From a virus (Duplodnaviria > Heunggongvirae > Uroviricota > Caudoviricetes), in IMG/VR virus record IMGVR_UViG_2630968766_000009: 40,446 bases of DNA; one strand, written 5' to 3'. The notes under the pieces are model-generated. The model did not search any database, was not told where the DNA came from, and saw only the letters and a list, made by a program, of their open reading frames with translations. The translations under genes were made by a program, and so were the position numbers. Positions 19,560 through 33,969 of the stretch are shown one piece after another (positions within the stretch are counted from its first letter, which is position 1; each line of letters begins with the position of its first letter).

Positions 19560-20079
19560 TCAGCAACCCCGGTATCAGTTCATCCAGCGCGGCTGCTTTG
19601 TTCATGGCTTTGATGATATCCCGTTTCAGGAAATCAACATGTCGGTTTTCCAGTTCCGGAAAACGCCGCTGCACCGACAGGGGGATCCCGTCGAGAATAC
19701 TGGCAATTTCACCTGCGATCCGCGACAACACGAAAGTACAGAATGCGGTTTCCACCACTTCAGCGGAGTCTCTGGCATTCTTCAGTTCCTGTGCGTCGGC
19801 CTGCGCACGCGTAAGTCGATGGCGTTCGTACTCAATAGTCCCTGGCTGGAGATCTGCCTCGCTGGACTGCCGCAGTTCTTCAACCTCCCGGCGCAGCTTT
19901 TCGTTCTCAATTTCAGCATCCCTTTCGGCATACCATTTTATAACGGCGGCAGAGTCATAAAGCACCTCATTACCCTTGCCACCGCCTCGCAGAACGGGCA
20001 TTCCCTGTTCCTGCCAGTTCTGAATGGTACGGATACTCGCACCGAAAATGTCAGCCAGCTGCTTTTTGTTGACTTCCAT
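19534..20079 (-). CDS. nu1: Terminase small subunit Nu1
   Basis: 181-aa ORF beginning MEVNKKQLADIFGASIRTIQNWQEQG (HTH), overlapping the start of A as in lambda. Confidence 0.95.
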
Positions 20080-20256
20080 TGTTCATTCCACGGCCAAAAA
20101 CAGAGAAAGGAAACGACAAAGGCCCAAAAGTTCGTTTTCAGCACCTGTCGTTTCCTTTCTTTTCAGGGGGTATTTTAAATAAAAACATTAAGTTACGACG
20201 AAGAAGAACGGAAACGCCTTAAACCGGAAAATTTTCATAAATAGCGAAAACCCGCG

Positions 20257-20268
20257 AGGTCGCCGCCC
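20257..20268. other. cosN cohesive-end site
   Basis: The plus strand reads aggtcgccgccc, the reverse complement of the remembered lambda 12-nt cohesive end GGGCGGCGACCT, about 190 bp upstream of the Nu1 start. Confidence 0.6.
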
Positions 20269-20467
20269 CGTAACCTGTCGGATCGCCGGAAAGGACCCGC
20301 AAAATGATAATAATTATCATCTACATGTCACAACGTGCATCTACGCCATCAAACCACGTCAAATAATCAATTATGACGCAGGTATCGTATTAATTGATCT
20401 GCATCAACTTAACGTAAAAACAACTTCAGACAATACAAATCAGCGACACTGAATACGGGGCAACCTC

Positions 20468-20662
20468 ATGTCAACTAAGAACAGAACCCGCAGAACAACA
20501 ACCCGCAACATCCGCTTTCCTAACCAAATGATTGAACAAATTAACATCGCTCTTGAGCAAAAAGGGTCTGGGAATTTCTCAGCCTGGGTCATTGAAGCCT
20601 GCCGTCGGAGACTAACGTCAGAAAAGAGAGCATATACATCAATCCAAAGTGATGATGAATAA
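20468..20662 (+). CDS. Small basic protein, possibly ribbon-helix-helix (YlcI/DUF3950-like)
   Basis: 64-aa ORF with an Arg/Thr-rich N-terminus followed by IRFPNQMIEQINIALEQKG...WVIEACRRRL; sits between cos and bor on the strand opposite the late genes. Confidence 0.4.
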   Translation: MSTKNRTRRTTTRNIRFPNQMIEQINIALEQKGSGNFSAWVIEACRRRLTSEKRAYTSIQSDDE

Positions 20663-21021
20663 ACATCCCGGTTTCTTCCACCATCGCACCGGAAAAGCGA
20701 CTATGAGGGTAACCCTGCGTCTGTCAGCACAGTAAAACCCGGTGTGCATCGTTTTTGATTATTCCCGCACACTCACGCAGAAGGAATTCCCCGTCGGGCT
20801 ACGGTCATGGTTAATGCGGGAATACGGCGACGATACAGCGCAGCTAAAAGGGTAATGGACAGAAAGAGCGGTTTATTTCATTCCACAGGATTCTGAGTGC
20901 CCCCCTCCTCCAATAGGCTGAGCATCCACCTATATAGTTTTAATTTTCATCAATCCATTTAACTATCGTTTAATTGTTGTCACATAGGATTCTGCCGTTT
21001 TTAAAAATGCAGGATAATAAG

Positions 21022-21315
21022 ATGAAAAAAATGTTGTTTTCTGCCGCTCTGGCAATGCTTATTACAGGATGTGCTCAACAGACGTTTACTGTTGGAAACA
21101 AACCGACAGCAGTAACACCAAAGGAAACCATCACCCATCACTTCTTCGTTTCGGGAATTGGACAGGAGAAAACTGTTGATGCAGCCAAAATTTGTGGCGG
21201 CGCAGAAAATGTTGTTAAAACAGAAACCCAGCAAACATTCGTAAATGGATTGCTCGGTTTTATTACTTTAGGCATTTATACTCCGCTGGAAGCGCGTGTG
21301 TATTGCTCACAATAA
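21022..21315 (+). CDS. bor: Bor lipoprotein (serum resistance)
   Basis: ORF-track frame trimmed to MKKMLFSAALAMLITGCAQQ (lipobox LITGC), 97 aa, lambda Bor length; opposite strand to the lysis genes, as in lambda. Confidence 0.9.
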   Translation: MKKMLFSAALAMLITGCAQQTFTVGNKPTAVTPKETITHHFFVSGIGQEKTVDAAKICGGAENVVKTETQQTFVNGLLGFITLGIYTPLEARVYCSQ

Positions 21316-21346
21316 TTGCATGAGTTGCCCATCGATATGGGCAGCT

Positions 21347-21808
21347 CTATCTGCACTGCTCATTAATATACTTCTGGGTTCCTTCCAGTTGTTTTTGCAT
21401 AGTGATCAGCCTCTCTCTGAGGGTGAAATAATCCCGTTCAGCGGTGTCTGCCAGTCGGGGGGAGGCTGCATTATCCACGCCGGAGGCGGTGGTGGCTTCA
21501 CGCACTGACTGACAGACTGCTTTGATGTGCAACCGACGACGACCAGCGGCAACATCATCACGCAGAGCATCATTTTCAGCTTTCGCATTAGCTAACTCCT
21601 TCGTGTATTTTTCATCCAGTGCAGCAACATCACGCTGGCGCATCTGCATGTCAGTAATTGCCGCGTTCGCCAGCTTCAGTTCTCTGGCATTTTTGTCGCG
21701 CTGGGCTTTGTAGGTAATGGCGTTATCACGGTAATGATTAACAGCCCATGACAGGCAGACGATGATGCAGATAACCAGAGCGGAGATAATCGCGGTTACT
21801 CTGTTCAT
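21347..21808 (-). CDS. Rz: Spanin inner membrane subunit Rz
   Basis: Frame 21347-21820 trimmed to [36 protein letters not shown]... (153 aa), very close to remembered lambda Rz; ATGA overlap with the R stop. Confidence 0.9.
21406..21588 (-). CDS. Rz1: Spanin outer membrane lipoprotein Rz1 (embedded in Rz, +1 frame)
   Basis: 60-aa ORF wholly inside Rz, with lipobox VVVGC and the proline-rich [18 protein letters not shown] tract. Confidence 0.8.
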
Positions 21809-22302
21809 TGCTGACCCCACAAACAGATTTCACGCTCAATCTCACGACGAGTCATGAGACCTTTCCATTGCTTACCGCCAGCATATGTCCAGCGACGTAG
21901 CTGATCACATGCGCCTTTGATATCGCCCTGGTTTATTTTGCGAAGAAGCATCGATGTTCTGAAATTGCCAGCACCCACGTTGTAAACGAATGAGTAAAGA
22001 GCGCCGCGCATTGTTTCCGGTATATCGACTTTGATGTACGGGTTAATTTGTCTGGCGACCGTGGCAAGGTCTTTATTCAGGAGGGCTTTGCATTCTGCTT
22101 TGGTATACGTTTTACCGAGCATGATGTCTTTTCCTGTATGCCCGTGACATACAGTCCATACACCAACAATATCTTTGTATGGTATGTAGCTGACACCTTC
22201 CAGACCATCGTTACCACTTGGGCCAGTGATTAACACTGATGCTATAGCAATTGCTCCGCCACCAATAGCAGCAGCAACGGCTTTTCGTAATGATGGAGGC
22301 AT
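21805..22302 (-). CDS. R: SAR endolysin (T4-lysozyme family, phage 21 R-like)
   Basis: 165-aa ORF with a Gly/Ala-rich N-terminal signal-anchor-release segment ([20 protein letters not shown]) followed by a lysozyme domain. This is not the lambda transglycosylase R. Confidence 0.85.
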
Positions 22303-22517
22303 TATTCACCTCTCGCAGCCTTGCGCTTATCTTCTTTAATCTTGAAATAAAGGTTTGTCAGGTACGTCAGCAGGCCAAATACCAGGCTACCCAGCACACC
22401 TATTGCTGCCCACTGTGAGGGCGTGACTTTATCGAGCAGCTGTAAAAACCAGTAACCGGCACTACCTGCTGAGGTGCCATAGGCGACACCCGTTGTTAAC
22501 TTATCCATGGATTTCAT
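22302..22517 (-). CDS. S: Pinholin with dual start (phage 21 S-like)
   Basis: Frame 22302-22562 trimmed to [26 protein letters not shown]... (71 aa); the MKSM dual-start motif is typical of holin/antiholin pairs; two transmembrane segments. Confidence 0.8.
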
Positions 22518-23105
22518 AACCCCACCTCGCAGACAAAGCGGGTGTAAATTGAGGGAATACAACGTATCGCAAAAAAGCAGAAACGTAACAGACTCGGAGT
22601 CAGTGAATAACTCAGGTATTGAGTTATCAGCTAATATCGAGACTCAAAAAATGGAAAAACCAGCTCGACGGCGGGTTTAAGCTGTGTGACGAAGTAACCA
22701 CTCTTAACAGCATAACCAATTTTTTACGTACGTAAACCACTGAATGATATTTATGAGAATGCTACCGAGTGTTCAAAACACCACCACAAATACATAAGAA
22801 AATCTCAACAAATAACCAATAAATAATTTCCGGAGTTATTTTTAGTTAATTTAAATTAAACCACCGAATTATAGAACCCCCATAAATAACAGCCATTAAT
22901 ATAAATTAGCTAATAGGTTTATTTTTGTTCAAATAAGAGCCATAAATAGGTTTCGATAGAAAAAGTTCAGATAAAAATAGAGATCTACTTCACAAATTAA
23001 ATGAGAAACTAAAACTTACATCTTGAAATAATCACATTGATTAGATGAATATTTATCGCGCAGTGACATCATTTTTTAATAATAGTTCAAAAAAAAGGGC
23101 TCACG

Positions 23106-24203
23106 ATGAAAAAATTAACAGTGGCAATTTCTGCTGTAGCTGCATCAGTACTGATGGCGATGTCTGCTCAGGCAGCTGAAATTTATAATAAAGACAGTAA
23201 CAAGCTGGATCTGTACGGGAAAGTTAATGCCAAGCACTACTTTTCCTCTAACGATGCAGATGATGGTGATACTACTTATGTTCGTCTGGGCTTCAAAGGC
23301 GAAACCCAAATCAACGATCAGCTGACTGGTTTCGGTCAGTGGGAATATGAATTCAAAGGCAACCGCGCTGAATCTCAAGGTTCCTCCAAAGACAAAACCC
23401 GTCTTGCATTTGCAGGCCTGAAATTCGGTGACTACGGCTCAATCGATTACGGCCGTAACTACGGTGTAGCATACGACATCGGTGCGTGGACTGACGTTCT
23501 GCCAGAATTCGGTGGCGATACCTGGACCCAAACAGATGTGTTCATGACTGGTCGCACCACTGGTGTTGCAACCTATCGTAACAACGACTTCTTTGGTCTG
23601 GTTGATGGTCTGAACTTTGCTGCTCAGTACCAAGGCAAAAACGATCGTAGCGATTTCGATAACTACACCGAAGGTAACGGTGATGGCTTCGGTTTCTCTG
23701 CTACCTATGAATACGAAGGGTTCGGTATCGGTGCAACTTATGCGAAATCTGATCGTACCGACACTCAAGTTAATGCAGGGAAAGTTCTTCCTGAAGTATT
23801 TGCTTCCGGTAAAAATGCAGAAGTTTGGGCCGCAGGTCTGAAATATGACGCTAACAACATTTACCTGGCCACTACCTATTCTGAAACCCAGAATATGACT
23901 GTATTTGCTGATCACTTCGTTGCTAATAAAGCTCAAAACTTCGAAGCTGTTGCACAATATCAGTTCGATTTCGGTCTGCGTCCGTCCGTTGCTTACCTGC
24001 AATCTAAAGGTAAGGATCTTGGAGTATGGGGCGATCAGGACTTAGTCAAATATGTTGATGTAGGTGCAACCTATTACTTCAACAAAAATATGTCTACTTT
24101 CGTTGATTACAAAATCAACCTGCTTGACAAAAATGACTTCACTAAAGCACTCGGTGTAAGCACTGATGACATCGTTGCTGTAGGTCTGGTTTACCAGTTC
24201 TAA
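23106..24203 (+). CDS. nmpC: Phage-encoded general porin (OmpC/OmpF family; NmpC/Lc-like)
   Basis: 365-aa ORF with a signal peptide ([23 protein letters not shown]), porin-like sequence and C-terminal ...VGLVYQF. Preceded by a 540-bp AT-rich region and an AAAAGGG RBS. Confidence 0.9.
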
Positions 24204-24211
24204 TCTGATTA

Positions 24212-24252
24212 CGAAAAAGATATGTTGGGGAGGCTTTGCCTCCCCAACATAT
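24212..24252 (-). terminator. 15-bp-stem hairpin with a T-run on the minus strand (candidate late-leader terminator tR')
   Basis: atatgttggggaggc (24220-24234) pairs with gcctccccaacatat (24238-24252); on the minus strand it is followed by cTTTTT (24219-24214). About 140-180 nt downstream of the Q stop in the late direction. Confidence 0.4.
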
Positions 24253-24339
24253 AAGTGGCTCCCTCAAGCCACTTCCTTTAGGAGCACAACCTTGCTTCTA
24301 ACTATATAAACCTTCTGTTATATATTACCCTTTATTTTT

Positions 24340-24365
24340 GGGGGCGTTGCAACGCCCCATTTTTA
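24340..24365 (+). terminator. Intrinsic terminator downstream of the porin gene
   Basis: Hairpin gggggcgttgcaacgcccc (24340-24358) followed by aTTTTTaa on the plus strand. Confidence 0.5.
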
Positions 24366-24391
24366 ATAATTTTTAGTAAACAATTGGCATA

Positions 24392-24775
24392 TTAATTAGA
24401 GTTATTAACAACGATATCCATCTCTAACCGGATATCTAATGCCATTAACATCCCTTCAATTATGCCCTCAGCCTTCTGTAACCTTTTCCCGATATAACCA
24501 TCAGAGCAGCAATGCTTACCTGCCAGTGACATGAATGTCATACCGACTACATAATAATCTACTAATAAATCGTGCAAATCGCTGTTGTTCTTTTTCAGAC
24601 GGGCCATGCACCCGCAAATGATCATCGCGTCATCGTCACAACATTGCGGGCGAGATTTTACTTTTGAAGGAATTAATCCCTTAAAACCGGCGGCAATGGA
24701 CGACCAGGTCACATCTTCATGATTATTAGCCGCCCACGCTCCCCAACGCTCAAGAACCATCTGAATATCACGCAT
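24392..24775 (-). CDS. Q: Late antiterminator Q (phage 21/82-type, QuuD-like)
   Basis: Frame trimmed to [26 protein letters not shown]... (127 aa) with the Cys-rich motif [13 protein letters not shown]; lies between rusA and the lysis genes. Confidence 0.85.
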
Positions 24776-24860
24776 CAACTTACTCCACAAAAATCAGACC
24801 AGAACGCCAATTACAAGCAAAAATCAACAAAACAGTATTAGTTGATTGTTATCTCTGACT

Positions 24861-24998
24861 TCATACTCCTGCTCCTGTCAGGGTTTTGGCGTAATTCTTC
24901 AGTATTCGGTAATCGGTCAAAACAGAACCGGGGAAACGATATAAGCGCAGACGCCCCCAGCGGTGGCGAAGAAGTTCTGCCATATTAAACTCAAACAT
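24861..24998 (-). CDS. Small protein (YlcG-like), translationally coupled to rusA
   Basis: Manual translation: [45 protein letters not shown] (45 aa); its ATG overlaps the rusA stop (TGATG). Below the ORF-track size cutoff. Confidence 0.4.
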   Translation of the reverse strand: MFEFNMAELLRHRWGRLRLYRFPGSVLTDYRILKNYAKTLTGAGV

Positions 24999-25360
24999 CA
25001 TTCATTCCCCATTTCGGTGATGGTCAGTTCCAGCCTCCCACCTTTGGTAACAGGCATCTTCACAACGCGGTAATCAACGACCTGAGCATCATCCAGCCAG
25101 AAACCTGCTTTAGTGAGTGCGTCAAAAGCGGCTTTTTGCAGATTATCCAGGTCACGGCGACGGCGATCCGGCATGTGGCACTCAATGCGGATTTTCACAG
25201 GCATAGCCAGGCCGATATCCAGCATTGCGTTTTTAATGATTCGGGCGACGTTATCGCGGTATGCCTGCCCCTCTGCACTGACGTGCGTGCGCCCGCGATT
25301 ATGGCGGTAATAGCGATTATTGCTCGGAGGCCATGGTAATGTGATACTGTAGGTATTCAC
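24998..25360 (-). CDS. rusA: Holliday junction resolvase RusA
   Basis: 120-aa [40 protein letters not shown]..., matching the remembered RusA sequence. Confidence 0.9.
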
Positions 25361-25647
25361 GCCTTAATAACCCCCTCTTTCAGCCAGATAACCTGTGTTC
25401 TCGCCATACCTTCCAGCGCGCATTCTTTTGCATATGCAGCATCGACAAAATGTGTGCGGCGGTCGATTTCGTCGTGGCAGGCAGAACATGCAATGGTGGC
25501 AATCAGGTCTGGCGGTTTGGTACCGGTGCCGCACAATCCAGTCAGCCGGATATGTGCCAGTACAGACGTTTCAGGGTTGCCATTACATACGCCAGGGATT
25601 CTTACCTGGCATTCCCGACCACGCGCTGCTTTTCTCAAATCAGCCAT
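25357..25647 (-). CDS. YbcO-like putative zinc-binding nuclease (DUF1364)
   Basis: Frame trimmed to [29 protein letters not shown]... (96 aa); Cys/His-rich; start overlaps the ninE-like stop. Confidence 0.7.
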
Positions 25648-25810
25648 GATTCCTCCTTGCTGCCAGTCGCAACCATTTTTTATCAACCAGGCTAGCGGTA
25701 TATCCGAGCAGTGTTGGTATTTCGGATGGCTTCAGCTCAGGCTTACGCTTACGACGATTTGATACTCTGTAGATGTGTCCGTTCATGACACGAATAAGCG
25801 GTGTAGCCAT
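25640..25810 (-). CDS. ninE: NinE-like small protein
   Basis: Manual translation: [56 protein letters not shown] (56 aa); its ATG overlaps the ninB stop (TAATG). Confidence 0.5.
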   Translation of the reverse strand: MATPLIRVMNGHIYRVSNRRKRKPELKPSEIPTLLGYTASLVDKKWLRLAARRNHG

Positions 25811-26265
25811 TACGCCTCCTGCTTGTCGCGGAGCAGCTGGAACTCGCAGCTCTGCGGAATAGTCAGGTGGCAGCCAATATTCACCGCCCAGGCTTCAACC
25901 TTACACAGGAAGACATACATCTCTCCGGTATCAAGATCGGAGGTATAGCGTAATGACTGAATGGTGGTGATTTCACCGGTTACGACATCAACCAGGTCTT
26001 TGGTTTCAAAACCGAGATAAGTGTGTTTGAGAGCATCTTTTACCCAAGCTGCAGTAGCGAACGATTTCCCCCTGCTTATGAGGTATTCACTGATTTCGCT
26101 GTACCACATGTGGCTAAGTGCATTCTGGGAAAGACTGCGTCTCTCGCGCCACGGTTTAAGCACCATGCGAAAGCATTTTCCGTCCTCCAGATAAGGCTGG
26201 ATCTGCTGACCGATAGCGGTGAAGTTACCGCGATGTAATTTGATGCCGTCTTGTGGGAGGTTCAC
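25810..26265 (-). CDS. NinB/YbcN-family recombination protein
   Basis: 151-aa ORF in the nin-region position; remembered as similar to DLP12 YbcN. Confidence 0.7.
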
Positions 26266-26475
26266 GCTTCACCTCCGCAGAGGTCAAACGTTGGATGCAA
26301 AAAATCGCAGGTGCATTTCTGCATCTGTGAAGGGAGAAGAGAGTTTGGATTGTGTGTGCGCATAAACGTCCCCGTTTAGCGCAGAAGTCACCGGAGTTGT
26401 TCAGGTTCCGGTGATACAATTATGGCGAATTGATGACGGAGAATCAATTTTGCGAAAATGACACGATTGATCTAC

Positions 26476-27108
26476 TCAGGCCTTGGAAAGCTTGAGCTTA
26501 CCCTTTACGTGCAGAGTGTTAATTAACCAGAAGGCCCCGAGCAAACACATACAATGCGCGCTAGTGACTAACTTACAAATACGAATGCGATTTTCTTCAA
26601 GATCAGGAGGTAGCTCTTTCATCAACGCTATAGCGTAGATTCCATCCTTGAGAATTGGCTCAACAACTTGATGCACGTAGCCACCATGGTTAATCTCTTC
26701 TAACTTTATGTTTTTAATCGATTCTGCGAGTTTATCAACCTCTTCATTTGTAATTACATATTCAATTTTATGAGCGTACTTGTTACGTATTGTGTTGAGC
26801 TCAGCCATAGCGTCTGCAAGCGAGACAGGAAGCCCTAACAGAACTGCGGCAGACAGCTTTGACGCAAAATACTTATAGCTTCTTATCGAATTGTATTTTT
26901 CAGAGCCATCAGGTCGTAAGTTTTCAATAACAACCCGAAGAAAGTCCTCATGAATTAGCATCAATTTTAATAGCGCGGCAGACTCATCCTCATAGTTAGC
27001 TATCGAGGCCATTTTATTAAGATCTAGAAAATAGCCAAAGTCATGATCGATTTTCACGTAGTTACCCTCATCCGTTGTTGGACTTTGTTCAATTCGAGAG
27101 AATTTCAT
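26476..27108 (-). CDS. Hypothetical protein with a HEPN-like R-x4-H motif (candidate toxin / abortive-infection effector)
   Basis: 210-aa ORF in AT-rich DNA; motif ELNTIRNKYAHK (RNxxAH) typical of HEPN RNase active sites; hydrophobic C-terminal segment LLGAFWLINTL. Start overlaps the upstream small ORF stop (ATGA). Confidence 0.55.
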   Translation of the reverse strand: MKFSRIEQSPTTDEGNYVKIDHDFGYFLDLNKMASIANYEDESAALLKLMLIHEDFLRVVIENLRPDGSEKYNSIRSYKYFASKLSAAVLLGLPVSLADAMAELNTIRNKYAHKIEYVITNEEVDKLAESIKNIKLEEINHGGYVHQVVEPILKDGIYAIALMKELPPDLEENRIRICKLVTSAHCMCLLGAFWLINTLHVKGKLKLSKA

Positions 27109-27281
27109 TTATCTTCCTCCTGTTTCATATATCTAGGGTCAGATGCTTTAGGCTGGGTGATGCTATGCTCAATGGAGAAGCCGGACGCGCTCCATGTTGA
27201 TTTGCCAGTTTGAGCTATCGTGACAACACATTCATTATTGTCGATGTTAACTTCGCGCAGCACTGGTAACTGTGAATTCAT
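27105..27281 (-). CDS. Small hypothetical protein (58 aa) coupled to the HEPN-like gene
   Basis: Manual translation: MNSQLPVLREVNIDNNECVVTIAQTGKSTWSASGFSIEHSITQPKASDPRYMKQEEDK; a GGAG RBS precedes the ATG and the stop overlaps the next start. Confidence 0.4.
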   Translation of the reverse strand: MNSQLPVLREVNIDNNECVVTIAQTGKSTWSASGFSIEHSITQPKASDPRYMKQEEDK

Positions 27282-27443
27282 TTTCTAACTCCTGTTTAAT
27301 GTTGACACCGCATTTATGCTGTCACGACACAATTACTTTCTATCCTGCTGTGATGCTGCTGACAGCGGCATCCAATACCTTACCTTCTCAGCATTCTGCA
27401 AAATCGATGACGAGTCATGACCGGTTCGCGTAGCTCAGTGAAA

Positions 27444-28067
27444 TTACTGCAACCTTTCCTGACGGAAATATGGTAACACTCGACTCCACTTATCATCCTG
27501 CCAAGGCTGGAATTTTACATGTGCCGTTTCTCTGGCGAGGATTGCTCGCGCTCTGTTGAGTATCTGGGGATATTCTTGCTCGATAGAAGTAAAGCGACCG
27601 GCTTCGCGGTGCTCCGCGACCTGAAGAAGTGGAGTAACGTTCTGGCAGGCAGTTAACATCACATCACTTGCTCGCCATAACCAAGCAAGTGTGCAAAGTT
27701 CGTTATCAGTGAATTGTTTTGTGATTGGGGATTGTTGAATTTCTCGATCGAGAATATCCAGCACCCAGCGGCGGAACTCTTTGGCTACAGGAGTTCGTGC
27801 AAACATGGCGATCAGGTGAGCGCCGCGCAGGGAGAATACACGCACTTTTTTTCTGTAATTTCCTGAGGTCACTGATTCGATGACCTGAGTCATACCGCTA
27901 GTAAATTCGTCGGCATTCTGGTTGAACAGATTAGTTACTGACTTTGCGCTTTTGTACTGTAAAGCGTTCGCGATTTCGGTAGAGGTCAGCCAGATTCCTG
28001 TCATGCCAGCAACCGGTACAATCGCTTTACCTTGGAAGTTCAGATCTGATCTTGCTACAATATTCAT
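27444..28067 (-). CDS. Bro-N domain antirepressor-like protein
   Basis: Frame 27444-28148; N-terminal LNFQGKAIVPVAGMTGIWLTSTEIANALQY and ...SLRGAHLIAMFARTPVAKEFRRWVLDIL match the Bro-N pattern. Start chosen at MNIVAR (AGGA RBS); the alternative ATG at 28148 overlaps the upstream RHH gene. Confidence 0.65.
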   Translation of the reverse strand: MNIVARSDLNFQGKAIVPVAGMTGIWLTSTEIANALQYKSAKSVTNLFNQNADEFTSGMTQVIESVTSGNYRKKVRVFSLRGAHLIAMFARTPVAKEFRRWVLDILDREIQQSPITKQFTDNELCTLAWLWRASDVMLTACQNVTPLLQVAEHREAGRFTSIEQEYPQILNRARAILARETAHVKFQPWQDDKWSRVLPYFRQERLQ

Positions 28068-28137
28068 GTCGATATTTCCTACGCGGTTATTTTCGATAGA
28101 AGCCCCTGAGGTTGCCGCCAACGGGGCTTCGCTGTTT

Positions 28138-28296
28138 TTAGCGAGCATGTATCCGCTCTCTAAATTTCAATGCCCACACAAGCGCCTGAACAATAGCGGC
28201 GTTCTCAGACATCCCTTCCTCCTGTGCAATTCGCTTGAATTCATCCTTCACATTTTGCGGATAGCGAAGGGTGATTTTTACTTCTTTCTTTTCCAT
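28138..28296 (-). CDS. Arc-like ribbon-helix-helix repressor
   Basis: Frame trimmed to MEKKEVKITLRYPQNVKDEFKRIAQEEGMSENAAIVQALVWALKF... (52 aa); AGGAG RBS 7 nt upstream; RHH beta-strand and helix pattern. Confidence 0.6.
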   Translation of the reverse strand: MEKKEVKITLRYPQNVKDEFKRIAQEEGMSENAAIVQALVWALKFRERIHAR

Positions 28297-28396
28297 TGAT
28301 ATCTCCTTGTGAGGCCATAATGACACCATGAGGCCATAATGCCACCATTGAATTGATGTGGCAATATGGCACCATTCATTTTTTTGGGGATTTCCA
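28297..28396. promoter_or_regulatory. Divergent promoter/operator region with tandem 19-bp repeats
   Basis: gaggccataatgacaccat and gaggccataatgccaccat in tandem, then a third partial copy (gcaatatggcaccat), between the two divergently transcribed RHH genes. Confidence 0.4.
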
Positions 28397-28699
28397 ATGG
28401 CTGATAAACAAGTAAAAAACTATGATAAGTTTAACCTCCGTTTCCCTGATGGGATGCGTGAAGCTATAGCTGAACGTGCCAAGCGTAATGGCCGCTCAAT
28501 GAACTCAGAAATCGTGCAAATACTTGAAGATGCGCTTTATACAGACAGTGCACGAGTGTTCACCGTTGAAGATGAAGTGAATCACTCAGGGAATGTAGCA
28601 ATAGATCCCGTGCAACTTGAGAAATTAATGGAAAAAGTGATAAACAAGGCATTAATGGGCTTTACAGGATCGCCTGCAAAAAAAATTGATAAAAAATAA
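28397..28699 (+). CDS. Mnt/Arc-like ribbon-helix-helix repressor
   Basis: Frame trimmed to MADKQVKNYDKFNLRFPDGMREAIAERAKRNGRSMNSEIVQILEDAL..., close to the P22 Arc/Mnt RHH motif (FNLRxP...NGRSxNSEI), with about 50 extra C-terminal residues. Confidence 0.65.
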   Translation: MADKQVKNYDKFNLRFPDGMREAIAERAKRNGRSMNSEIVQILEDALYTDSARVFTVEDEVNHSGNVAIDPVQLEKLMEKVINKALMGFTGSPAKKIDKK

Positions 28700-28738
28700 A
28701 AAAATTATTAGAAACTTCTGCTATATGACTAAGGATAA

Positions 28739-29221
28739 ATGATGAGTAAATTTGATCGTTATTTACAAAGAGAAATTCTGGCTTTAGCTATTGATGCCTA
28801 CCCTGCTTATATTGGTCATAAACACTCTAAAATTCCAGCCAGCTATGAGTTATTAAAAAATGCCAAAGAAGATTTGGTGTATCCTAATATACATTACTTG
28901 CATGAACACAGCTTAATAAATTTCGATAAGATAGGATATAGAAATAACAACAGTAATCCCTTAGCATGGGTAAAAGCAACCTCTCACGGCATTGATTTCG
29001 TTCAGCAGGATGGAGGCCTTTCTGCCATTCTAAACGTCAAAACAATCAGGTTTCATAAAGACACTATAGTTGTACTGGAAGACCTCATAGCGATTTCAAA
29101 TATGAATGATACTGATAAAGAAAAGGCTAAATCTATTCTTTCTGAATTACCAGTTGATGCAATTAAAACAGTTGTACAAACACTTACAACTACAGCTCTA
29201 AATGCGTTGCTAAAATCATAA
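28739..29221 (+). CDS. Hypothetical protein (160 aa), AT-rich, downstream of the Mnt-like gene
   Basis: ORF begins 40 nt after the Mnt-like stop with an AAGGA RBS; no domain recognised. Confidence 0.45.
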   Translation: MMSKFDRYLQREILALAIDAYPAYIGHKHSKIPASYELLKNAKEDLVYPNIHYLHEHSLINFDKIGYRNNNSNPLAWVKATSHGIDFVQQDGGLSAILNVKTIRFHKDTIVVLEDLIAISNMNDTDKEKAKSILSELPVDAIKTVVQTLTTTALNALLKS

Positions 29222-29366
29222 ACGCTCCTATGAAAGGCTTGTCCTTATGGTTATGACTTAGGAGGATCATCGTTATCCCTCAATCAATAAATATAAATTT
29301 ACCACGACGAAATTAAATATTTTTAATACAACCGGCATTAACACTTAAAGCAATAATAGTGAGTTA

Positions 29367-29789
29367 TTAAGATGTAATACGGTAAGTTGAAGTATTTTCT
29401 CCTTTATAACAGTTCAAAACATTAAATTTATTGACCAATTTGACCATGCCAGAATTTACGTTTACCACTACCATTTCAACAACTGGCAGTTTCTTAAGCA
29501 ATGAAGAAATTACTTGAAATCCTATTGATTTTCCCTGCATGCTTTTAGCTATATGAATTTCATGCAAAAATATGTAACCTTCACGAGGGATTGATATATC
29601 CAAATTCATATATTCAATCTCTACATACCCAACTAAATAACCTTGGTGCTTTATAAAATAGATATTCTGCACATCATTGATTTCATAAACTTTTTGGCTC
29701 CAGCCATAACTAGAACGGTAGGTATTTAACGTTATAAGTTTTTTATCATCAGGTAGATTACAAGAAGCAAACTTAACAAAATTAACCAT
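29367..29789 (-). CDS. GNAT-family acetyltransferase-like protein
   Basis: 140-aa ORF in very AT-rich DNA; segment IFLHEIHIAKSMQGKSIGFQVISSLLKKL resembles GNAT motif A (R/Q-G-K-G-I-G with one substitution). Confidence 0.45.
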   Translation of the reverse strand: MVNFVKFASCNLPDDKKLITLNTYRSSYGWSQKVYEINDVQNIYFIKHQGYLVGYVEIEYMNLDISIPREGYIFLHEIHIAKSMQGKSIGFQVISSLLKKLPVVEMVVVNVNSGMVKLVNKFNVLNCYKGENTSTYRITS

Positions 29790-30112
29790 AATCTAACCTT
29801 CCGTTAATTTCCGAATAGTTATAATAAAAACATAATCGATTTGCCGTTTCTTATCCACAATATGGTAGACTCGTGAACGTGCTATAATGATATTATATCA
29901 TACCAACATTTTTATAGCTCTCCCTAAATTTTCGTCTTCAGTGGGCCACCTGAAAACACCGTTTGTCATGTTTTTCTACCTAGCGCCCTCTTTCGCCAGA
30001 ATACCTTCCTCCCGGTTGATACTGACTATGGTCGCACTAGTCGATTCTGCAACATCAGTCGCACAGAAATTCTGGTGCGTTTCCAAGTAGTGAATAATTG
30101 CCTCTTTGCCCG

Positions 30113-32630: not shown

Positions 32631-32734
32631 TTCCTATTGGTATTACAATGAATGGATAATAGCAATGCGTATTAACCCAATCAATAGCAAAACGTGTTTT
32701 GACCATCAATACGCAAGCGTATAAATTAAAACTT
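32631..32734. promoter_or_regulatory. oR-like region: divergent pR and pRM with operator-like imperfect palindromes
   Basis: Minus-strand TTGATT-N17-TATTAT (plus coordinates 32656-32684) upstream of the cro-like gene. Plus-strand TTGACC ... TATAAA 9 nt before the cI ATG. Motifs such as taatagcaatgcgtatta recur at the pL-side site. Confidence 0.4.
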
Positions 32735-33427
32735 ATGAAAAAAGAAACTCTTGCTGATCGCTTAAACCTAGCGATGGAACAATCTGGAATGTCTCAAGGC
32801 GCTCTTGCAAAGGCGTCTGGCGTAGCTCAACCCACAATCTGGAGACTGACAAGCGGCAACGCACGCGGCTCAACAAAAATTGTTGAAATAGCTAATGCAT
32901 TGGGTGTTCGAACAGAGTGGCTCTCATCAGGCATAGGCCCGATGAGAAATGACGGTCAACAATCAGGGAAGCCTGCTGCCAACCATCCCAAATACTTCAA
33001 GATTGACGTTCTTGATATAGAAGTGAGTGCCGGGCCGGGAGTCATCAACCGTGAGTTTGTAGAAGTTCTACGCTCGGTTGAGTACTCGTTTGACGATGCT
33101 CGTCACATGTTCGATGGCAGGAAGGCAGAAAATATCCGCATCATTAACGTACGCGGTGACAGCATGTCAGGAACGATCGAACCAGGTGATCTTCTGTTCG
33201 TTGATATCACTGTTAAATCTTTCGACGGTGATGGTATCTATGCGTTTCTGTATGACGACACAGCCCATGTTAAGCGCCTGCAAATGATGAAGGATAAACT
33301 GCTGGTTATCTCTGATAACAAGAGCTACTCACCGTGGGACCCAATCGAGAAAGACGAGATGAACCGGGTGTTTATCTTCGGGAAAGTTATTGGGAGCATG
33401 CCGCAAACATACAGGAAACATGGATAA
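32735..33427 (+). CDS. cI: CI-type repressor (N-terminal HTH, C-terminal LexA-like S24 autopeptidase)
   Basis: Frame trimmed to MKKETLADRLNLAMEQSGMSQGALAKASGVAQPTIWRL...; C-terminal GDSM...KRL Ser/Lys dyad. Confidence 0.85.
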   Translation: MKKETLADRLNLAMEQSGMSQGALAKASGVAQPTIWRLTSGNARGSTKIVEIANALGVRTEWLSSGIGPMRNDGQQSGKPAANHPKYFKIDVLDIEVSAGPGVINREFVEVLRSVEYSFDDARHMFDGRKAENIRIINVRGDSMSGTIEPGDLLFVDITVKSFDGDGIYAFLYDDTAHVKRLQMMKDKLLVISDNKSYSPWDPIEKDEMNRVFIFGKVIGSMPQTYRKHG

Positions 33428-33507
33428 TCAATAATAGCCTGATTAGACATTTGGGTGATGAGAGAGGCTGCAGAAACGCAGCCTGATTCTAAAATGGGAT
33501 ATAAAAA

Positions 33508-33969
33508 ATGAGAATACTAGGTGTTAGGGCGGCGCCCAAAGTTACATCTTTTGTTGTATATTGCACTGATGAGTCTGCACTCAAATGTGTTGATGTTATT
33601 AAAATACCTTCGACCTTAGACACACCAGAAAAATTAAAGTATGTGCGAAATAACATCCTCGACATTCTTAATTTATATAATGTTGAATTAGCTGCTATAC
33701 GCGTTACTGAATCAAACTCTGATAATCTTAGCATTGACCGCCTTTATATAGAAGCTGTTATTCAAGAAGCATTTTCAAGCAGTGATGTAAGAAGATATTA
33801 CACCATTAGAAAATCTGGTATGAAGTCATCATTGAACCTAACAGAGATCGAGTATAAAGAAATATTGAAGTCACACCGTAATATAAATGGAATCGATAAT
33901 TCTGGTTTTACAACTGAAACAAATGAAGCTGTTTTGGCTGCACTATCTGCGGAGGTAAGGGGATGCTGA
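33508..33969 (+). CDS. Hypothetical protein (153 aa), translationally coupled to the kinase gene
   Basis: AT-rich ORF MRILGVRAAPKVTSFVVYCTDE...; its stop overlaps the kinase start (ATGCTGA). No domain recognised with confidence. Confidence 0.55.
   Translation: MRILGVRAAPKVTSFVVYCTDESALKCVDVIKIPSTLDTPEKLKYVRNNILDILNLYNVELAAIRVTESNSDNLSIDRLYIEAVIQEAFSSSDVRRYYTIRKSGMKSSLNLTEIEYKEILKSHRNINGIDNSGFTTETNEAVLAALSAEVRGC

Follow-up and report, generated by a model that had tools for sequence, protein, structure and literature searches.

A RuvC-like protein with replaced catalytic residues as candidate partner of the Stk abortive-infection kinase in lambdoid prophages

Stk, encoded by the Stx phage 933W, is a classic prophage abortive-infection kinase. 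Passages that deal with Stk in two published papers describe it as a eukaryote-like tyrosine kinase that is inactive or almost inactive in uninfected cells (PMC3681748) and that stays silent until infection by HK97 switches the kinase on and the infection is aborted (PMC3681748, PMC6356687). Both cite Friedman et al. 2011 for the phage exclusion finding, one counts Stk among prophage Abi systems (PMC6356687), and in these published accounts the HK97 exclusion phenotype is credited to stk. The gene sits in the 933W immunity operon, annotated as pM ... cI-L0084-L0083-stk-L0081 ... tM. A role is assigned to stk only in the literature we searched, and its neighbors L0083 and L0081 are labeled 'hypothetical'; that search, whose range excluded the original reports on Stk by Tyler & Friedman (2004) and Friedman et al. 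(2011), returned nothing on either neighbor.

We analyzed 40,446 nucleotides of viral DNA (Caudoviricetes; IMG/VR record IMGVR_UViG_2630968766_000009), a stretch referred to in its full length as the window. It is a lambdoid prophage with structural genes at 1-20 kb, genes for Rz, endolysin, Q, Ant, and NinB, a replication region, divergent cro-like and cI-like genes, and an integrase. The cI-like prophage repressor gene (32699-33427, plus strand) encodes an HTH domain (Pfam HTH_3) and an S24 peptidase domain (Pfam Peptidase_S24, E 1.5e-18). Behind it, on the same strand, lies a low-GC cassette (a moron) of three genes at 33445-35206 that is common to 933W and other Stx phages, with a GC content of about 0.357 inside and 0.46-0.50 outside; we call its genes A, B, and C. 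By megablast, positions 33445-35202 (query 846-2603) are 96.9% identical to 933W and are also found in about 50 other Stx phages, while the cI genes differ. Gene order, overlaps, terminator, and place behind cI are all the same as in the 933W immunity operon. The two differ in their repressors and in the DUF3024 gene L0084 (2592-2933 of the 933W locus, L001), which lies between cI and L0083 in 933W only, so the slot behind the repressor appears to gather different cargo genes. In gene identity and context the window matches the 933W Stk system, the phenotype of which is known from the literature alone. The rexAB genes of lambda occupy the same slot. Elsewhere in the window, a second low-GC stretch (0.33-0.47) at 20000-30000 holds lysis genes, Q, NinB, and an Ant-like anti-repressor gene (27444-28148), along with several uncharacterized ORFs, among them 23106-24203 (PHROG 410), 28739-29221 (PHROG 3983), and 29367-29789 (no PHROG match, within a stretch of GC 0.33), which may be further morons.

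Gene A (33508-33969, plus strand) begins with an ATG 80 nt downstream of the cI-like gene and ends with a TGA at 33967-33969 in the ORF reading. Its 153-aa product is 98.7% identical to L0083, encoded just upstream of stk in 933W, and matches PHROG 3875 over residues 1-153 of 153 (E 1.9e-90); by this full-length profile match and by its synteny upstream of stk it is a member of the PHROG 3875/L0083 family. An exhaustive profile search recovered 449 cluster representatives of this family at E<=1e-3, of which 252 reach E<=1e-10; almost all are stand-alone proteins of 145-170 aa. The full-length match, these 449 relatives, and a conserved overlap with the kinase gene together make gene A a real gene, more than a chance ORF. 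Gene B (33963-35009, plus strand) encodes a 348-aa Hanks-type protein kinase (Pfam Pkinase, E 1e-46; PHROG 2361) that is 96.8% identical to 933W Stk. Its ATG at 33963-33965 forms part of the sequence ATGCTGA (33963-33969, plus strand), in which the kinase start and the gene A stop overlap over 7 nt in translational coupling; 9 nt before this ATG, still within the 3' end of gene A, there is a GGAGG Shine-Dalgarno sequence. GC content is 0.357 in gene A, 0.356 in the kinase gene, and 0.358 in gene C, against 0.464 in the cI-like gene and 0.495 in the downstream flank. A first-pass annotation of this DNA had named the neighbor a kinase and had pointed to both the stop-start overlap and the equal AT-richness of the two genes; each of these points held up.

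The same annotation missed a third coupled member of the unit, gene C (35012-35176, plus strand), which begins 2 nt downstream of the kinase stop codon and encodes a 54-aa basic protein that is 92.6% identical to 933W L0081 (PHROG 4063). An intrinsic terminator closes the cassette at 35175-35206 (plus strand), with a stem-loop at 35175-35196 whose 8-bp stem contains 6 GC pairs and is followed by TTCTTTTGTC; it is the equivalent of 933W tM, which is annotated at the same place. Transcription of the cassette in the lysogen probably originates from the cI-like repressor gene. Between the two, within the stretch common to 933W, is a GC-rich stem-loop with a 7-bp stem (AGGCTGC-AGAAAC-GCAGCCT, 33465-33484, plus strand) that is without a T tract and was not called a terminator by our scan; the pRM transcript might be processed or attenuated there. 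The common stretch also includes a five-codon mini-ORF, MGYKK* (33494-33511, plus strand), the TGA of which overlaps the ATG of gene A (ATGA). It may act as a leader for coupling or may have arisen by chance.

We found the pairing of gene A with the kinase to be conserved far beyond the Stx phages. A scan limited to one genome per species yielded 75 gene A loci from alpha-, beta-, and gamma-proteobacteria, a cyanobacterium, and a Polyangium (a myxobacterium). In 74 of the 75, a kinase homolog with 34-60% identity to gene B begins at the gene A stop. The remaining locus, in Sphingomonas (L077), was considered as an orphan gene A and rejected, being a decayed locus with kinase remnants; the kinase or its remnants are therefore directly downstream of gene A in 75/75 loci. 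Seen from the kinase, gene A lies directly upstream in 78 of the best 80 viral-contig homologs (37-100% identity), and the contig end cuts off the other two. The overlapping pair also turns up in SPbeta-like phages of Bacillus, with 35% and 43% identity. The linkage is thus near absolute in both directions, and the co-occurrence analysis that the first-pass annotation had proposed as a check came out in its favor. When all ORFs of at least 70 aa from the 75 loci were clustered all against all, genes A and B were the only conserved families, gene C being below this length cut-off. Pairwise distances within the two families are correlated (r=0.87). No natural A-B fusions were found among the top 120 kinase matches, all of 337-353 aa, or the top 150 matches of the gene A family.

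The form of the junction is conserved as well. We tabulated 76 gene A/kinase junctions, 933W and SPbetaL7 included, and found a stop-start overlap in 68, most often of 8 nt (51 junctions) and otherwise of 1 nt (10), 4 nt (6), or 7 nt (1), this last being 933W, with the same arrangement as the window. Gaps of 1-2 nt separate the genes in 4 of the other junctions, and 4 are visibly disrupted. Sequence beyond the kinase gene was available for 72 genome loci, and in 64 of them an ORF of 50-65 aa with the motifs common to gene C lies 3' of that gene, starting from -4 to +2 nt relative to the kinase stop in most cases. The family has a median pI of 10.1, an N-terminal motif MxK[IV]KNxxxxYxxR[SA]xL, and a C-terminal motif [FY]Y[VI]xF. 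The motif Arg is invariant across 17 diverse aligned modules, followed in the enterobacterial clade by Asp/Glu instead of Ser/Ala.

The surroundings of the cassette are much more variable than its content. It lies directly behind the repressor gene in 933W, in the window, and in Klebsiella Rac-like prophages, with a different repressor in each, and between the portal and capsid genes in an Acinetobacter prophage. Outside phages, it adjoins a type I restriction R subunit, a YgjP peptidase, and Tn7-like TnsD/TniQ in Colwellia (L066) and a PLD-SNF2 helicase-nuclease in the cyanobacterium (L018), both of which are defense-island or transposon-cargo settings. This distribution is that of a mobile defense cassette. 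Among complete E. coli genomes, 225/5,426 carry the cassette, O157:H7 Stx prophages included. In some E. coli genomes (hits H66, H74, and H75) the match is in two pieces with an IS3-family transposase within the cassette, so the module is sometimes disrupted.

We next consider what kind of protein gene A encodes. The first-pass annotation had ventured, from the N-terminus, a weak resemblance to RNase H-fold proteins such as RuvC, and had suggested structure prediction and a profile-profile search. The guess was correct by fold comparison and by the AlphaFold2 model, which has a pLDDT of 91.9 and a predicted topology of beta-beta-beta-alpha-beta-alpha-beta-alpha...alpha. The fold places gene A among RuvC proteins, with the RNase H-like beta-beta-beta-alpha-beta-alpha-beta-alpha core and the RuvC-specific helices that mark these proteins of about 155-170 aa. 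By the sequence scores of curated families gene A is outside RuvC: Pfam RuvC (PF02075) gives E 0.062 and 13.6 bits, below its cut-off of 22.2, with residues 3-65 on profile positions 1-64, and NCBIfam RuvC gives 12.2 bits, below its cut-off of 163. Identity to host RuvC is about 12-15%. A search of PDB sequences with the gene A family profile returned nothing meaningful (best E 0.5, to ALIX and MinE), and likeness to RuvC entries of the PDB surfaced by fold comparison only. Profile-profile comparison did align RuvC, but with hhalign probabilities of just 3-15%. The residue equivalences given below come from these weak alignments, which are mutually consistent and congruent in secondary structure; the E. 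coli RuvC sequence used in them was checked against PDB 1HJR.

Where RuvC resolvases (PF02075; PDB 1HJR, 4LD0, 6LW3) have catalytic acids, the gene A family appears to have basic residues. Among 121 diverse members, G5, R47, R78, E82, and E87 are invariant, and R7 (120/121), E68 (119/121), E140 (117 Glu and 4 Asp), P34, and P40 are nearly so. The Pfam, NCBIfam, and hhalign alignments all set the N-terminal strand xxLGVR of gene A on the ILGID of RuvC, which puts R7 on Asp7, the first catalytic Asp. Position 65, Arg in 96 members and Lys in 25, falls on Glu66 of RuvC in two hhalign runs, one with E. coli RuvC and one with a four-species RuvC alignment, and by the coordinates of the Pfam match. 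Toward the C-terminus, the helix motif E137-x-x-E140-A-x-L-A resembles, in our reading, D138-A-A-D141-A-L-A of RuvC. The tetrad Asp7, Glu66, Asp/His138, and Asp141 is accordingly incomplete in these alignments, with an acidic residue at E140 and, in 57% of members, at E137. The family also differs from RuvC in charge, with a median pI of 5.6 and a net charge of -1 compared to a pI of 9.6 for E. coli RuvC; taking pI and charge as proxies for the surface, gene A does not share the basic DNA-binding surface of RuvC. With basic residues at two metal-ligand positions and an acidic surface, two-metal nuclease activity is very unlikely. Since E68, E140, and often E137 are conserved near the old active site, the family could conceivably have an unconventional catalytic center.

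These observations bear on how the family is labeled in databases. PHROG 3875 is named 'RuvC-like Holliday junction resolvase' and RefSeq phage records carry the same label; the phi24B record labels the homolog 'res: resolvase', and PGAP in E. coli calls it 'hypothetical protein'. As a functional statement, the label 'Holliday junction resolvase' is probably wrong for this family, and our analysis corrects a spreading RefSeq annotation in which a protein is labeled a resolvase without a resolvase active site.

The kinase, on the other hand, retains its catalytic residues, with K42, E58, D132, K134, N137, and D150-F-G all invariant. It is a non-RD kinase, having HFD in place of HRD (Arg to Phe). 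Non-RD kinases are usually not controlled via phosphorylation of the activation loop and are common in innate immune signaling. In the light of this general knowledge, an intact non-RD kinase fits control by a partner better than control through its activation loop. A C-terminal beta/alpha domain of about 70 aa is also conserved in gene B (model pLDDT 85), and fold comparison of its model gave no informative match.

What is established, then, is a protein with a predicted RuvC scaffold that by alignment lacks the catalytic tetrad and whose gene is obligately and translationally coupled to those of an intact non-RD kinase and a basic peptide, in a cassette that shows lysogen-type expression signals and defense-type contexts. 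We propose, with a probability of roughly 0.6, that gene A is a regulatory or sensing subunit of the Stk abortive-infection kinase, a pseudo-nuclease and not a resolvase. The first-pass annotation had offered sensor, regulator, and substrate of the kinase side by side; the obligate coupled linkage favors the first two, while the third is weakened because gene A has no invariant Ser, Thr, or Tyr. In our model, the stand-alone pseudo-nuclease would be co-translated stoichiometrically with genes B and C from a mobile cassette that its position behind the repressor would keep expressed in the lysogen, and that defense islands also carry. We infer that the gene A protein binds the kinase, and would either hold the non-RD kinase inactive or, as its input module, link it to a phage-derived trigger. 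This trigger might be a phage protein or a branched DNA intermediate recognized via the old RuvC surface. Activation would then free the kinase to phosphorylate host or phage proteins, and the infection would be stopped. Gene C, in whose motif the Arg is invariant, could serve as a pseudo-substrate, inhibitor, or adaptor. Given its fold, gene A might sense DNA junctions, a reading that the acidic surface disfavors. If Stk alone excludes HK97, gene A would be no essential sensor.

A more specific version of this model can be held only tentatively. Here the dead RuvC scaffold would be the pathogen-sensing input of an immune non-RD Hanks kinase, responding to branched DNA or to a phage protein that engages junction-processing enzymes, and the small basic protein would serve as a pseudo-substrate lock. 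If true, this would be an immune module made of a pseudoenzyme sensor and a kinase, analogous to the decoy- or pseudokinase-guarded immune kinases of plants, with a spread reaching from the Stx phages of E. coli to the SPbeta phages of Bacillus.

Gene A could instead do no more than inhibit a putatively toxic kinase in the manner of an antitoxin, within a tripartite layout comparable to HipBST, with sensing left to the kinase C-terminal domain or to the gene C protein. An upstream, coupled, acidic partner that co-evolves with the kinase would suit this role, as would the conserved C-terminal domain of the kinase, the model of which looks like a protein-interaction fold, and the reported inactivity of the kinase in uninfected lysogens, as described in passages of PMC3681748. 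We nonetheless consider it unlikely, since the conserved network of charged residues on the RuvC scaffold (R7, R47, E68, R78, E82, E87, and E140) exceeds the needs of simple inhibition.

It is rather improbable that the kinase has gene A as its physiological substrate, or that gene A is a guarded decoy mimicking host RuvC, in which case a phage factor aimed at RuvC or junction processing would bind gene A and trip the kinase. Loss of catalysis under a preserved RuvC shape is what one expects of a decoy, and obligate pairing with an immune kinase is in keeping with either role. However, none of the candidate phosphoacceptors of gene A is invariant (S92 is present in 78% and Y97 in 81%, with Phe or His as substitutes), gene C is likewise without an invariant Ser, Thr, or Tyr, and a protein with so little identity to host RuvC and the opposite surface charge would be a poor mimic. 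We know of no phage inhibitor of RuvC. The last alternative, an active RuvC-type Holliday-junction resolvase or nuclease used in phage recombination or as a DNA-cutting effector switched by the kinase, draws on the full-length RuvC fold, the database names, and acidic ligands that E68 and E140 could supply, but is highly improbable given that the first catalytic Asp is essential in all RNase H-like nucleases and is Arg here, as the Glu66 position is Arg or Lys, that the Pfam score is sub-threshold and the family acidic where RuvC is basic, that gene A is never apart from the kinase in the loci sampled and occurs in non-phage defense islands, and that the prophage has recombination genes of its own (NinB/Orf and, in our reading, the adjacent ORFs at 36237-37699 as putative bet/exo-like genes).

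The reading of gene A as a regulatory or sensing subunit has consequences for the Stk system itself. Gene A, the kinase, the Abi phenotype of the kinase, and the 'RuvC-like' label in PHROGs are already known. Four points appear undescribed in the sources we searched: that the partner is a pseudo-nuclease, that this kinase clade is never found without gene A, that there is a third coupled gene, and that the unit spans several phyla. Genes A and C are two candidate components for the silencing of Stk and the sensing of HK97, and the question is directly testable, because every sampled kinase of this clade travels with a dead RuvC-fold protein and most travel with the basic peptide too. From its presence in 225 complete E. 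coli genomes and in several bacterial phyla, we regard the cassette as a widespread defense module, the three-gene make-up of which is missing from PADLOC 2.0, the one defense database checked. PADLOC 2.0 holds no model for gene A or gene C, and nothing in it matched gene C; a match of its tm_HEPN model to gene A (E 0.015) was rejected as spurious. Gene B matches the PADLOC models mad6 (E 8e-49) and PD-T4-6 (E 1.5e-36), both of which represent the generic kinase domain only, and scores 113.7 bits against NCBIfam MAD6, below the 460-bit cut-off.

Compared with RuvC resolvases, which cleave Holliday junctions as homodimers, the gene A family has Arg in place of Asp7 and Arg or Lys in place of Glu66, is acidic, scores below the Pfam threshold, and is always in an operon with a kinase. 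Other inactivated RuvC/YqgF-like scaffolds, as in TEFM, the YqgF domain of Tex/Spt6, and Cas12k, are domains of large nucleic-acid-handling proteins, whereas gene A encodes a stand-alone protein of 150 aa with a protein kinase as its partner. As in Staphylococcus Stk2, PD-T4-6, Mad6 of MADS, the KKP module of Pf, and HipBST, the cassette uses a Ser/Thr/Tyr kinase of a prophage or island as the putative abortive-infection effector. The cassette resembles HipBST in its coupled three-gene layout but falls outside that family, since the HipBST kinase is of the HipA type and is accompanied by HipS and HipB. In place of the phosphatases, HipS/HipB, or methylation modules of these systems, the Hanks-type kinase described here is partnered by a RuvC-fold protein and a small basic peptide.
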